NCBI GenBank assembly: GCA_964513225.1
Contig: CAZEMD010000002.1
Coordinates: 1-37,268, forward strand
Reading direction: 5' to 3'
Origin: an uncultured Candidatus Bathyarchaeia archaeon
GTDB lineage: Archaea; Thermoproteota; Bathyarchaeia; TCS64
DNA length: 37,268 nucleotides
Below, piece after piece: positions 21,543 to 37,268 of this stretch; positions within the stretch are counted from its first letter, which is position 1; each line of letters starts with the position of its first letter. The notes beneath the pieces are model-generated. The model was not told the DNA's origin. It saw only the letters and a program-made list of their open reading frames with translations, and ran no database searches. Position numbers and translations under genes: made by a program.

Positions 21543-21592
21543 ATGCGTGTGGCTATGGTGGCTGGGACTCGGCCCCAGTTCATCAAGTCTGG
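21543..21592 (+). pseudogene. wecB: decayed fragment of UDP-GlcNAc 2-epimerase 5' end (copy 0)
   Basis: ATGCGTGTGGCTATGGTGGCTGGGACTCGGCCCCAGTTCATCAAGTCTG encodes MRVAMVAGTRPQFIKS. Homology to copies 1-4 ends after about 50 nt. Confidence 0.7.
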
Positions 21593-21615
21593 TTCTGCAA
21601 CTCGAGAGAAGTACC

Positions 21616-22413
21616 CTACTTGATACGCTTTAAAAAGGAATTAACCTGAGAGGTGACTATGGCGCGTCTGAATCTACCCTCAGAGAAACTCTCGACTTGG
21701 AAGGGGCCGACCCGATTCTCGTTTCTAAACTTCTCTCTGACAACTGATAGGGAGTGATCGAGTAGCGATCTCATGTCAGGTGAAAGAGTTCTGCGGGACA
21801 CGGCCGCGTTGAAGTAATCTGTCGCCCTCTCCAGGCTTCCGTTGTAATGCGTCAGCGCGAATATGTCGTATGCATCCTTTTGCTTCATCCTCTCATCCAT
21901 GGCCTGGCCCTTCAGGGCGATGGACCCGACCAGGTCAACTATCTTGAAAGCTGTTTTTGCTTTCCCATCTCCGGGGAGCTGTGCCTCTATCCGTTGGTCG
22001 AAGTTGAACTCGAAGGCGATGTTCAGACCCTCGAACATGAATGCTTGGAGGTCGTCCTGCACCTTCTTTAGGTCGAGGAATCTCTCTCCCTCCTTGTCGC
22101 ACAGGAAGTCCAGGTGTATAGGGTAATCCTTCCCGTCGATGGGGGACGCCACATCCCTGACGAAGCGGAACTGGCTCTCAGGCTCGTACCCGAGTCCTAT
22201 GATGGTCTTCCTGATGGTCTCGTATCTTGGCAGAATCTTCGGTCTGAGAACGAGGTCGATGTCTGTGCTTCCGCAGTGCTCGAAGTAGCCCCTAGTTATG
22301 AAGTATGGCGCCCATCCGCCTGACAAGACCATGTCTTCATGGTATCTCTTGAGGGCGACTCCGAGCTCCAGGAGGGCGGATTTAGATGCTTCAGTTATCT
22401 CGGTGGCGTACAT
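21616..22413 (-). CDS. nucleotidyltransferase, AbiEii-like toxin candidate
   Basis: ...DMVLSGGWAPYFITRGYFEHCGSTDIDLVL... has the G[GS]...DxD minimal NTase motif. Lies immediately downstream of the AbiEi-like gene with a 3-nt gap. Confidence 0.65.
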   Translation of the reverse strand: MYATEITEASKSALLELGVALKRYHEDMVLSGGWAPYFITRGYFEHCGSTDIDLVLRPKILPRYETIRKTIIGLGYEPESQFRFVRDVASPIDGKDYPIHLDFLCDKEGERFLDLKKVQDDLQAFMFEGLNIAFEFNFDQRIEAQLPGDGKAKTAFKIVDLVGSIALKGQAMDERMKQKDAYDIFALTHYNGSLERATDYFNAAVSRRTLSPDMRSLLDHSLSVVREKFRNENRVGPFQVESFSEGRFRRAIVTSQVNSFLKRIK

Positions 22414-22416
22414 GTG

Positions 22417-23076
22417 TCACGCCTCCGATCTCCATCTTTTCTCAATCACTTTCAGTAGCTCCCCCGCCGCCTCCTCTCCTCGACCAGGGTAGTTCAGCAG
22501 ATCGACGTAGAGCTGTACGTCGGATACGACGTTTACGCCGTCAGCCTCCTGTGAGCCGTAGAACACGCCTCCGCTGGATGCGATTACGAATTTGACGTTT
22601 CCGTTCTCCTCCATGGGCATCAAGCCGAGTTGCTTTGCCCACTTGCCTGCATCGTCCTCGCTCATCACGTAGATGTGCACATTCGTAGGCCGTACGAATG
22701 GTGCCACAAGCAGGGCCCCGGCGAGGCCCGTCGCAGCGTATTTCGGTCCGCTAACGCCTCTGAGCTTGGTGAGGAGTGTGGTCACGTCTTCGTAGCCCGT
22801 ATAGTAATCAGTGAAGCGGTTGTCCGCTGTGAAGTTGTTATTATTAGCCCATCCTTTTAGGAGCGCGAGTGGCTCCATGAGCTTGATCTCTTGGCGTTCG
22901 GATTCTCTGATGGCGTACCTCTCCTGAATGAGAGCCATACAGACCTCGTGTGTCCAGCCCAGTGCGGCGCCGGACTCCCTGCTAAGCCCACGGATGGTCC
23001 AGGTCATCGGATGGTTTACAAGTAGGACACGGATTACGTCAGCCGCCTTTCCGCTGAAGAGGTTTAATCTGCCCAC
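22417..23076 (-). CDS. AbiEi-like antitoxin / wHTH regulator
   Basis: GTG start. The N-terminal wHTH-like ...ADVIRVLLVNHPMTWTIRGLSRESGAALGWTHEVCMALIQERYA, with C-terminal ...VVSDVQLYVDLLNYPGRGEEAAGELL, is typical of AbiEi C-terminal domains. Confidence 0.65.
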   Translation of the reverse strand: MGRLNLFSGKAADVIRVLLVNHPMTWTIRGLSRESGAALGWTHEVCMALIQERYAIRESERQEIKLMEPLALLKGWANNNNFTADNRFTDYYTGYEDVTTLLTKLRGVSGPKYAATGLAGALLVAPFVRPTNVHIYVMSEDDAGKWAKQLGLMPMEENGNVKFVIASSGGVFYGSQEADGVNVVSDVQLYVDLLNYPGRGEEAAGELLKVIEKRWRSEA

Positions 23077-23089
23077 CCATGATTCAGGT

Positions 23090-23146
23090 GTTCGGTCATA
23101 TTTATATATGTTCGGTTTTACCGAACGTATATATAGTACACCGAAC
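23090..23146. promoter_or_regulatory. 57-bp symmetric operator-like array: GTTCGGT-N13-GTTCGGT-TTT-ACCGAAC-N13-ACCGAAC
   Basis: Four 7-mers at 23090-96, 23110-16, 23120-26 and 23140-46. Both 13-nt spacers are TATA-like (CATATTTATATAT and GTATATATAGTAC). The array starts 14 nt upstream of the AbiEi-like GTG. Confidence 0.6.
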
Positions 23147-23414
23147 GTTAAAGGGGGCGCTCTTCATCCTATGGGGGTCTTACTTTCTACTGTATTACTT
23201 GACATTAACGCAGGTACATGTAAGTTCTAACGGGATAAATCATTTATGGACATGTAAATCTCTCAGTTCATATGATGACGAGGTTTCACGGGATGGTTTC
23301 TTAAGCATTAAGTTGGTTCCGATCGTTAAGGGGTAGGCTGGTGGGGCTTTGGGTTTAGCTGGTATCACCGGATTCAAGCTGTTTCGTTCAGGATGTGTGC
23401 CTAGCAACTGCCTT

Positions 23415-35735: not shown

Positions 35736-36015
35736 TCTCCCAGGCAGCCTCGGATTCCTCCTCGACGATCTCCTGGAGGCGTCGGCGGGTTATGCCGGTC
35801 TTCTTCACCTTCTCCCTGATGAGGGCGAGGAGGCGCTTCTCGCCCTGGAACTTCTTGATGAGGTAGGTGTCGCCTATCTTCTCTATGACCACGTAGTCGT
35901 CTTGGGTGAGGCCGAGTTCCTCTCTGACCTCTTTGGGTAGGGTTATCTGGCCTACGGAGGTGACCTTGCTTATGTATGTCTCGGCCATGTGGTTCGCCGT
36001 TATCGGCTGGGACAT
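35707..36015 (-). CDS. AbrB/SpoVT-type antitoxin
   Basis: ...VTSVGQITLPKEVREELGLTQDDYVVIEKIGDTYLIKK... is a swapped-hairpin AbrB motif. Alternative start at 35988. Confidence 0.75.
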   Translation of the reverse strand: MSQPITANHMAETYISKVTSVGQITLPKEVREELGLTQDDYVVIEKIGDTYLIKKFQGEKRLLALIREKVKKTGITRRRLQEIVEEESEAAWEKTATRLPRR

Positions 36016-36249
36016 TGGGTTATTTAAGAATTTCTTAGATGGCGTGTTGGCTGGCTTTGTTCACGGTTTGTGGACGTATTGTTTATGGGCCGTGAACAGC
36101 GCTGGGTGGTGGTTGTTTGTGGTTGTGAGTGCGTGTGGGGGGATCCAATGTCGTCATCGAGGTTCAACGTTTCCCGGGGTTGTTTGCTGATCGGAGGTCT
36201 TCCCGGGCTCCTTTGGGCTGCCTGTAGTCTTCGCCGTGGAAGCCCTTTT

Positions 36250-36696
36250 TCACATTGATCTCAGGTCGAATACGGTTAAACCGAGTTCTTCCTGGTTTTG
36301 AATTATGTATTTGTCGCTTGTGATCAATGGCAGGCTGTGTATCTTCGCTGTTGCGACGTGGTACGCATCGAAGTAGTGAAGTTTCCGAGGGCCTCGATGT
36401 CGTTGATAGAGCATCAACGCGTTGTATGTGATGGCGGGAGTCAAGGGCAGGGGCGTGTGTGTTATGGAGGCTATTGAGATGATGACCTGCGCCGCTTCCA
36501 TAATAGATAGTCCTTTGGATCTCAGGGCCGTGGTTATGTCTTCGTAGAGCATGCTCGAGACGTAGGCTTGGGTCCTGCCTTCGAGGATCTGGTTTACTAC
36601 TTTCTCCGAGTGGGCGATGAGGTTGTCGGCTTTGATGTAGGAGATGAAGACGTCGGAGTCGATTAGGCGTCTATTGTCGGTCTCGTTTGAGGACAT
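36250..36696 (-). CDS. vapC: VapC PIN-domain toxin
   Basis: ...LIDSDVFISY..., ...YEDITTAL..., ...HYFDAYHVATA... and ...LITSDKYI give the PIN acidic-residue pattern. Confidence 0.8.
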   Translation of the reverse strand: MSSNETDNRRLIDSDVFISYIKADNLIAHSEKVVNQILEGRTQAYVSSMLYEDITTALRSKGLSIMEAAQVIISIASITHTPLPLTPAITYNALMLYQRHRGPRKLHYFDAYHVATAKIHSLPLITSDKYIIQNQEELGLTVFDLRSM

Positions 36697-36904
36697 AGTC
36701 TTCTCCTGCTTCCTCCAGTTCTTCGATGGTCCATGGGATGTCGATTGATCCTTTTACTTCCTCGGGTTCGGGTATTGGTACCAGCTTGATTATTTTCTCC
36801 TCGTAGTATGCGATGAATCTTCTGGATTGTATCTTTTTCCGTATATCCGAGGGGAGGGTTAATCTGCCTCGGTCGTCGAGGGTTATCTCACTCATTTTAC
36901 CCAT
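36671..36904 (-). CDS. vapB: AbrB/SpoVT-type VapB antitoxin
   Basis: MSEITLDDRGRLTLPSDIRKKI... Overlaps the downstream PIN gene. Confidence 0.75.
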   Translation of the reverse strand: MGKMSEITLDDRGRLTLPSDIRKKIQSRRFIAYYEEKIIKLVPIPEPEEVKGSIDIPWTIEELEEAGEDYVLKRDRQ

Positions 36905-36980
36905 TTACTGGTAGGGATACCCGCGGTTATATGTTTTTTCCCTTCATGTGTGGGCCTTACCCACAAGAATCCATGGTAGA

Positions 36981-37147
36981 GACGGCTGGATGGCTTGGGG
37001 GTGGTCAGGGCTTCATCGTGGGCCCCTCGACGAGGTGTTGAACCTGGTTCAGCTGGGTTAAGGTGAGTGTGACGCCTGGTGGGGTTCACTTGCCTCTTTT
37101 CTGTGTGTGTTGGATAATCTTTTAGATTGCTAGGAGAATCTTTCAAC
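36981..37147 (+). repeat. about 168-bp wecB upstream repeat (pairs with 26960-27127)
   Basis: See 26960-27127. Confidence 0.9.
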
Positions 37148-37268
37148 ATGCGTGTGGCTCTGGTTATTGGGACTCGGCCTCAGATAATCAAGTCTGCTCC
37201 ATCATTAAGGAGGCTGGTAGGCGTGGGTTGGAGCTGGATGTGGTGCATACGGGGCAGCACTATGATTA
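37148..37268 (+). pseudogene. wecB: UDP-GlcNAc 2-epimerase 5' end, copy 4 (runs off the window; 1-nt deletion relative to the other copies)
   Basis: ATGCGTGTGGCTCTGGTTATTGGGACTCGGCCTCAGATAATCAAGTCTGCTCC-ATCATT... The other copies have CCC here, so the frame becomes [27 protein letters not shown]... This may be a true frameshift or a homopolymer error. Confidence 0.6.

Follow-up and report, generated by a model that had tools for sequence, protein, structure and literature searches.

Serial truncated wecB gene starts bracket toxin–antitoxin and defence cassettes in an archaeal metagenome contig

Displacement arrays at Rhs loci were reportedly described by Jackson et al. in 2009, whom Kirchberger et al. 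cite for them. For the orphan 3′ ends of Rhs and contact-dependent inhibition (CDI) loci, and for the immunity arrays of the Vibrio cholerae type VI secretion system (T6SS), the origin proposed is a homologous anchor combined with illegitimate recombination, after which whole arrays are swapped through homologous exchange (Kirchberger et al. 2017, PMC5361080). Here we describe an array of gene 5′ ends in contig CAZEMD010000002.1 from an uncultured Candidatus Bathyarchaeia archaeon. The stretch analysed, referred to below as the window, is one whole contig of 37268 nt; it carries serial copies of the promoter and 5′ coding region of wecB, the product of which belongs to sugar epimerase family PF02350, and it stops inside the last of them. 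Between the copies lie cassettes of toxin–antitoxin (TA) and defence genes.

By analogy, the closest known kind of locus is the displacement array of polymorphic-toxin genes. As in the Rhs/CDI and T6SS arrays, the fragments are serial, share one orientation and derive from one end of a single anchor gene, with no fragments of the other end, and they lie beside an intact copy (here in a relative, locus L164). Each fragment would likewise mark an older module pushed aside by an incoming one, the modules appearing to come from other strains with different alleles and without an integrase. In the known arrays it is 3′ ends that are displaced, whereas here it is 5′ ends together with their promoter, a mirror image of that arrangement. 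There the toxin tip and the immunity gene are part of the anchor; here the cargo consists of self-contained TA and defence genes, most of them on the strand opposite to the anchor, which is a housekeeping sugar epimerase gene, and the host is an archaeon. The displacement-array principle would thus be extended to gene 5′ ends, to anchors and cargo that are unrelated, and to the Archaea. Our literature searches gave no description of wecB-linked arrays in archaea, and the architecture, which is real and recurrent, is apparently undescribed.

How islands without mobile-element genes come to gather defence and TA genes is little understood, above all in uncultured archaea. The growth of such islands can be read from this locus and its relatives, where each insertion would have left a dated scar, namely a displaced gene start from an identifiable allele. 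We lean, by a little, towards the view that the array arose by sequential displacement at a recombination hot spot, carried out by general recombination of the host, with the wecB promoter and 5′ region serving as a portable homology arm. A conserved housekeeping gene start could then act as a reusable arm on which cassettes are stacked and traded between strains, and even between wecB clades. On the practical side, serial truncated N-termini of WecB or NTP_transferase provide a marker for such islands in metagenomes.

Five wecB gene starts in one array

The original prediction had claimed five wecB starts on the + strand. This was borne out: a repeat search placed the promoter and 5′ coding region in five direct + strand copies with ATG at 21543, 24241, 27128, 35123 and 37148, and an nhmmer nucleotide profile of the wecB 5′ end, built from related loci, matched these five sites in the window and no others. 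The copies (wecB′) are named c0 to c4 from left to right, and related metagenome loci are labelled L141-L193. Each copy is given below with the larger unit in which it lies.

21543-21598, + strand: c0, wecB nt 1-56 (nhmmer E=1e-8); unit with promoter-like box at 21514-21598, both junctions recovered in L192 (99.9%)
24241-24406, + strand: c1, wecB nt 1-166 (nhmmer E=2e-45); unit at 24202-24438, with type A upstream sequence, wecB nt 1-166 and a junction tail common to c3 and L180a
27129-27370, + strand: c2, wecB nt 1-243, decayed after ~nt 157 (nhmmer E=1e-56); unit at 26957-27370, with 170-nt type B upstream sequence and wecB nt 1-243
35123-35296, + strand: c3, wecB nt 1-174 (nhmmer E=5e-51); unit at 35064-35353, with type A upstream sequence, wecB nt 1-174 and a junction as in c1
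37149-37268, + strand: c4, wecB nt 1-122, cut by the contig end (nhmmer E=7e-33); unit at 36978-37268, with type B upstream sequence and wecB nt 1-122

Only the beginning of the gene is represented, for a tblastn search of the window with the full-length 358-aa WecB of L158 matched the 5′ pieces and no 3′ pieces. Copies 0-3 had been said to end by about 60 codons; this applies to c0, c1 and c3 but not to c2, in which decayed homology extends to codon 81. The shortest and most divergent copy is c0, with 83-89% identity to the others (11-17% difference). Copies c1-c4 differ among themselves by 1-7%, and c2 and c3 by only 1% over the first 120 nt. The last copy, c4, is 91% identical to the full-length wecB of L158. 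Relative to all other copies it lacks 1 nt of a CCC run near 37199, and the reading frame changes at codon 18; 70 nt past this deletion the contig ends, and c4 may be a further pseudo-copy or reflect an end-of-contig error. That c4 begins an intact gene was a tacit assumption of the original prediction and, given the frameshift and the contig end, is unverified.

Upstream of each copy lies ~40 nt of promoter-like sequence. It includes, ~30 nt ahead of the ATG, a conserved ACTCTTTTA box, which we take to be a TATA element on general knowledge of archaeal promoters. Two types of upstream sequence can be distinguished, type A in c0, c1 and c3 and type B in c2 and c4; the latter two have a block of 170 nt in common, 94% identical. 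The idea that this block is a remnant of a wbpB-like gene was rejected, as five flank proteins gave no extra fragments in tblastn. A decayed sixth copy was not accepted either: the best candidate, at 23306-23342 between the AbiE and TumE modules, had E=1.1.

Could the array be an artefact in which strain variants were concatenated at a common repeat? Such an error would suit a metagenome contig that ends inside a repeat copy. Against it, contigs from other samples, recovered by exact-protein look-ups and BLAST, tile window 13970-30447, with both junctions of c0, c1 and c2, at 99.8-100% identity and from at least five other samples. The contigs are as follows.

13970-20579: L141, 99.9% identity, spans no copy
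20613-23481: L192, 99.9% identity, spans c0
22327-26782: L188-L191, 100% identity, span c1 (both junctions, four assemblies)
26167-30447: L184, 99.8% identity, spans c2 with both junctions

The left flank is 99.9-100% identical in L141-L143. Junctions unsupported by long reads had been named in the original prediction as the sign of an assembly artefact; those of c0-c2 are found in other assemblies, whereas no independent contig covers 30447-37268, and hence the junctions of c3 and c4, and exact-protein look-ups for the last cassette gave no matches. The copies also differ by 1-7% (c0 by 11-17%), so they are not collapsed repeats, and homologous arrays occur in unrelated assemblies. We therefore regard an artefact as very improbable, and for the testable part of the locus it is essentially excluded. 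As a side observation, L141 stops at 20579 and L192 begins at 20613, just inside the first cassette, where the sequence is unremarkable; the array's left edge may be polymorphic in the population, which these contig ends would reflect.

Related arrays, allelic origins and junctions

The wecB′ array pattern is general, being found in several probable Bathyarchaeia contigs; this lineage is weakly indicated by a few source names. With the 56-aa WecB N-terminus as query, a protein search yielded 80 short WecB N-terminal fragments with many different tails. The search gave only proteins <100 aa, which we take as its length bias and not as rarity of full-length genes. A DNA-pattern scan of JGI metagenomes supplied 33 loci. 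Within 30 further loci, all fragments fall in the first 204 of the 358 codons. In locus L154, PIN, DUF3368/UPF0175 and Gp49-type pairs separate five wecB′ pieces; two wecB′ copies flank an AbiE-like pair in each of L144 and L183; and L180 and L181 carry arrays too. IMG/VR contained no close wecB′ (best protein 67%; 0 hits for the DNA pattern), and a genome-collection scan with the conserved motif gave none closer than 65% among the matches listed. A lone wecB′ scar lies within a glycan cluster in L193.

The original prediction had foreseen that an array would end in an intact wecB and that relatives would have an empty site; both were found, each in a relative and not in the source strain. The order in L164 is wecB′, DUF4258/DUF2283, wecB′, ~8 kb, an Rv0078B pair, wecB′, PIN/MazE and a full-length 359-aa wecB. 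Downstream of the latter lies a 23-codon wecB′ scrap (530-598, - strand), so arrays may continue past the intact gene. L144 has no full-length wecB of the same type within 10 kb. In the distant relative L177 (WecB 56% identical), dehydrogenase, aminotransferase and acetyltransferase genes on one strand are followed after ~100 nt by a divergent full-length wecB, a compact 'empty' state.

A second gene shows the same layout. In the window, the 5′ fragment of an NTP_transferase gene (28410-28706) precedes a convergent PIN/RHH (ribbon-helix-helix) pair, just as the wecB′ copies precede their cassettes. A protein search of metagenomes gave 16 further truncated NTP_transferase fragments of 56-153 aa, among which tails recur; contigs of 9-16 kb carry some of them. 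Additionally, an 83-aa hexapeptide-transferase fragment lies among ParE and PIN modules in L144 (15786-16037, - strand), which suggests that other sugar genes leave scars as well.

The copies within an array differ in the manner of functional genes. Pooled over L144a/b, L180a/b, L181a/b and L164c/full, within-array differences are distributed over codon positions 1:2:3 as 14:7:55 (P=4e-12 against equal thirds; P=6e-5 against 1:1:2, the expectation if one partner decays neutrally). Over nt 1-120 in the window, third positions account for 7 of the 10 variable sites. The excess at third positions means that the copies diverged within functional genes, and are therefore different alleles. This fits the earlier proposal that incoming DNA brings its own 5′ end. 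Copies L164a and L164b are 97% alike. They match the L166 allele at 82% identity and the resident full-length gene at only 68%, and on this comparison belong to a foreign allele class. The copies in L180, L181 and L154 are only 78-82% alike, and their reading frames are mostly intact. In the window itself, c3 is identical to c2 over nt 1-116; over nt 117-156 it has an L158-type allele (88%), whereas c2 there is of L178 type (95%). On these identities c3 is an allelic mosaic with a breakpoint near nt 116.

These data bear on a purely in-place origin, by repeated tandem duplication of a cassette and the wecB 5′ end through unequal exchange, with later decay or replacement of cargo and no horizontal input of wecB. 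Tandem duplication alone gives a truncated copy joined to the far end of a cassette. Such an origin would explain why identity is higher among the window copies (93-99%) than with any outside copy (<=92%), and why end modules are common to c1/c3 and to c2/c4. It does not predict a third-position bias beyond 1:1:2, foreign-class copies in L164, or the divergent but mostly open copies of L180, L181 and L154; nor does it sit well with cassettes whose GC spans 27-56%, or with the same cassette junction on different wecB alleles, which is suggested already at the DNA level. We consider a purely in-place origin unlikely.

Junctions recur on different alleles. At the DNA level, the same junction is found on different wecB alleles in two families, that of c1, c3 and L180a and that of L178 and L181a. 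Five further junction families were seen at the protein level, among which ...ESVMT and ...EKTMAVN each join two wecB clades. Neither the junction nor the cassette to the right of a wecB′ copy varies in step with the allele of that copy, which looks local up to the junction: identity between c1 and c3 is 95% and then 70%. The order of cassettes at wecB′ boundaries differs among close relatives (L181, L180 and L144 against L183), the breakpoints coinciding with a wecB′ border or with the unit's -39 edge.

The limits of the repeat vary as well. Upstream they lie between -40 and -170. Downstream, truncation occurs at nt 56, 166, 243 and 174 in the window and extends to ~+490 elsewhere, where it falls at codons 17, 21, 30, 33, 51, 58-69, 81-87, 108-130, 148 and ~164; pieces L154b and L154e lack the 5′ part, that is, the first codons. 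Each wecB′ ends 0-80 nt from the stop codon of a convergent cassette gene. As originally predicted, the window holds no integrase, transposase or Cas1-like gene: no sizeable window open reading frame (ORF) had a Pfam match to Phage_integrase, Recombinase, rve, DDE or Cas1. Nor was any recombinase family found in ORFs of L144, L154, L164, L156, L167, L180 and L182, ~100 kb of array-bearing DNA in sum.

The original prediction had proposed repeated site-specific insertion into the 5′ end of the gene. In that case the cassettes would be non-autonomous integrative elements, served in trans by a recombinase from elsewhere in the genome or from a helper element that recognises a core in the wecB promoter or first ~50 nt, and each element would bring a replacement 5′ end. 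Consistent with this, the segment from -29 to +56 is common to all five window copies, and several lineages have arrays, without exception at the same end of the gene. Cassettes 2 and 4 are alike at both ends, having the c1/c3 junction tail and the c2/c4 170-nt upstream block, and so resemble related elements with different cargo. The order of the VapBC module and wecB′ is circularly permuted between L154 and the window, which is compatible with a circular intermediate. However, the ~100 kb of array-bearing DNA yielded no integrase, there are at least ten different truncation points, and some pieces lack the 5′ part. There is no single fixed crossover core, given that repeat limits vary on both sides and that c3 switches allele at ~nt 116. 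Between the supposed core and the junction, the wecB′ allele is independent of the cassette, as the comparisons of c1 with c3 and of c3 with c2 indicate; the same junctions are carried by different alleles right up to the junction, and NTP_transferase has scars of the same kind. What stands of the proposal is serial insertion or displacement, in line with the exclusive presence of 5′ pieces in one orientation; site specificity and an element family do not, and we judge a recombinase acting in trans to be quite unlikely.

Known elements with such enzymes provide a useful yardstick. Gene 5′ ends are targeted by integrative and conjugative elements (ICEs) as well as integrative mobilizable elements (IMEs) in streptococci. 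Xer-dependent elements (integrative mobile elements exploiting Xer, IMEX) have no recombinase of their own and rely on XerCD at dif. They and the cis-mobilizable elements (CIMEs) of Streptococcus use a defined site-specific system, XerCD at dif or an ICE integrase, with a fixed core, whereas no such core or enzyme was identified here. Both kinds are likewise bracketed by repeats of the attachment sequence, lack their own recombinase and form arrays by accretion; the term CIME is used in PMC7563491. The dusA-specific integrase islands (PMC8409611) also target the 5′ end of a conserved gene, leave a displaced 5′ remnant and can accrete in tandem; they have a tyrosine integrase, a fixed core and identical att repeats, in contrast to the missing integrase, variable limits and allelic mosaics of the wecB′ arrays.

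Integrons invite a further comparison: like an array of integron cassettes without an integrase (a cluster of attC sites lacking integron integrases, CALIN), the locus has short, TA-rich cassettes in mostly uniform orientation. Integron arrays and CALINs with TA and restriction cargo, stabilised by TA modules, are reported from archaeal metagenome-assembled genomes (PMC9668308), and as a further likeness the newest cassette adjoins the insertion point. Integrons need attC hairpins and IntI, neither of which is present here. The repeat is a protein-coding gene start with its promoter and not an attC site, repeat lengths are unequal, and Pfam scans of the window found no IntI. As single-stranded DNA, the repeat units fold no better than shuffled sequence (z = +0.8 to +1.5), for which reason attC-like folding was rejected, and Rfam gave no match for them. 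A CALIN is thus extremely unlikely and, in the testable part of the locus, essentially excluded. More speculatively, the wecB′ units could be attachment sites of an unrecognised archaeal cassette system, in which circles are re-inserted at sugar-nucleotide gene starts by a host or helper recombinase; we hold this to be improbable. Its small TA/defence cassettes, each with a promoter and gene-start module, would excise as those circles, and in function the system would be an archaeal counterpart to integron or IMEX cassettes. Should a dedicated recombinase exist after all, it would define a new archaeal cassette system.

A model of displacement by host recombination

Variable limits, the c3 mosaic, junctions shared by different alleles, the lack of an integrase and the second gene all favour a combination of homologous and illegitimate recombination, the reading that we prefer. 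The ancestral state would have been as in L177, with wecB divergent from its pathway partners and ~100 nt apart. In a first step, a rare illegitimate join would have linked the first few hundred nt of the resident wecB to the 3′ end of a TA/defence operon that already lay upstream of another wecB 5′ end. This join could have come about in two ways, either from foreign DNA anchored by wecB homology (homology-facilitated illegitimate recombination) or from an unequal exchange duplicating a cassette and the gene start. Either would give a truncated wecB′, a cassette, a promoter and an intact wecB, in that order. That illegitimate deletion operates at this locus is indicated by an 82-aa remnant of a deleted VapBC operon in cassette 2.

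In a second step, one that the sequence patterns show, homologous recombination and gene conversion in the wecB′ repeats move, stack, swap and delete cassettes, within and between genomes, and recombination inside the repeats shifts junctions onto new wecB alleles. In a third, addictive TA modules and defence genes would resist loss, such that arrays grow while cassettes decay internally. Selection accounts for two further features in this scheme: the promoter would be kept in every unit because the rightmost copy had to stay a working gene, and TA modules would accumulate because they are resistant to loss. A recombinase encoded by the elements would be unnecessary. The sequences themselves establish the anatomy of the array, the allelic origin of its copies, the c3 mosaic, the recurrence of junctions and the lack of local recombinases; the enzymology, the route by which DNA was transferred and the direction in which arrays grow are what we infer.

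Minimal mobile elements of Neisseria (PMC1797815, PMC3787668) offer a parallel, being likewise cassettes between conserved genes without mobility genes, exchanged by transformation and homologous recombination in the flanks. Those elements replace each other and leave no serial pieces of the flanking genes, whereas here the flank is reiterated as an internal homology arm.

Several points weigh against displacement by host recombination. No recombination intermediate, circle or empty site was seen in the same population. Junctions lie tightly at gene stop codons, and truncations cluster in the first ~250 nt, neither of which is predicted by random joining, so that selection, later trimming or a defined cassette boundary must be invoked. 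DNA would have to enter the cell without a known uptake route in these archaea. The protein-level junction families rest on tails of 3-8 residues, and part of the locus sample was drawn by a DNA pattern inside wecB, which makes the conservation of that stretch uninformative. Finally, with contigs of 2-37 kb, a trans-acting recombinase elsewhere in the genome may be compatible with the data.

Cassettes and flanks

The cargo had been described as TA or defence genes mostly on the opposite strand, and Pfam and PADLOC searches agree: of 24 genes, ~21 are read from the minus strand and 2-3 from the plus strand, with a dense cluster of TA and defence families comprising two AbiE systems (PADLOC E=6e-58 and 2e-60), TumE, five PIN-type modules, MazE and Mrr_cat. 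The sugar pathway said to lie upstream was also confirmed by Pfam. We presume that it is a diacetamido-sugar route of the WbpA/B/E/D type, the last enzyme of which, from textbook knowledge, would be a WecB-family 2-epimerase. The flank and the cassettes are composed as follows.

14738-20310: left flank (Pfam), with hexapeptide acetyltransferase (+), DUF2130 (-), DegT aminotransferase (-), UDP-sugar dehydrogenase (-) and GFO/IDH/MocA oxidoreductase (-)
20506-21401, - strand: cassette 0, a 156-aa ORF and a Lys/Glu-rich 142-aa ORF, both of unknown function
21616-24117, - strand: cassette 1, AbiEii-like protein (265 aa), AbiEi_2 (219 aa), TumE toxin (131 aa) and DUF7342 partner (97 aa) (Pfam)
24410-27129, - strand: cassette 2, 82-aa remnant (24410-24658), AbiEii (24691-25575) and AbiEi ORF (25579-27129) (Pfam, PADLOC, blastp)
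27449-35060, mixed strands: cassette 3, composite, including several unknown ORFs (Pfam, GC profile, PADLOC)
27449-28282, - strand: helix-hairpin-helix (HhH)/iron-sulfur (FeS) glycosylase-like gene, in cassette 3
28410-28706, + strand: truncated NTP_transferase 5′ end (PF00483, 98 aa; Pfam), in cassette 3
28737-29377, - strand: PIN/RHH, in cassette 3
29576-30419 and 30596-31305, both - strand: two PIN-DUF3368/UPF0175 pairs, in cassette 3
32014-33648, + strand: Mrr-type nuclease in 27% GC DNA, in cassette 3
33962-34771, - strand: unknown protein of 269 aa, in cassette 3
35292-36904, - strand: cassette 4, 75-aa ORF (possibly a PIN remnant), MazE/AbrB-type protein (102 aa), PIN toxin (148 aa) and AbrB/MraZ-like antitoxin (77 aa) (Pfam)

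The cassette 0 pair had no Pfam or PADLOC match, and its 156-aa product and the 269-aa protein of cassette 3 matched neither PDB sequences nor any Pfam or PADLOC family. Homologues of cassette 0 (74-79% nt identity) lie directly after a wecB′ copy in L144 (7312-7989) and L167 (3971-4386), and the two-gene module recurs beside wecB′ copies in at least three lineages. Its arrangement in the window is reproduced by L192. The AbiE pair of L181 is 94% identical to that of cassette 1 and is followed directly by a wecB′ copy, without the TumE pair. Similarly, L180 has the first half of cassette 4 (84% identity) with the c3-type junction, and then directly the next wecB copy.

Two ORFs of cassette 2 are of note. 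The 82-aa ORF at 24410-24658 (- strand), beside c1, matches in blastp an L154 antitoxin over residues 17-53 and the C-terminus of an L154 PIN toxin over residues 41-78; judged from these alignments, it is a fusion remnant of an internally deleted VapB/PIN operon, the intact pair being present in L154 (5162-5847). The 516-aa ORF at 25579-27129 (- strand) has AbiEi homology restricted to residues 245-511. Its top ~170 nt (first ~60 codons) correspond to the type B wecB upstream block, which is non-coding but open in this frame, and residues ~100-245 could form either an additional domain at the N-terminus or a small gene of their own.

A second array, on the start of the hexapeptide-transferase gene at 10-14.7 kb, was looked for, and no repeated gene-start fragments were found there. 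On that other side of the sugar cluster lie further TA modules, a DUF3368/UPF0175 pair at 10456-11295 (- strand) and a PIN gene at 11796-12194 (+ strand). Within cassette 3, GC falls to 27-35% between 32000 and 34000, against ~50-57% around it, and this segment has the look of foreign DNA that was recently inserted. The 544-aa protein that it encodes on the + strand combines a zinc ribbon with an Mrr_cat nuclease domain. AT-rich short direct repeats are present at 32351-32379 and 34989-35017.

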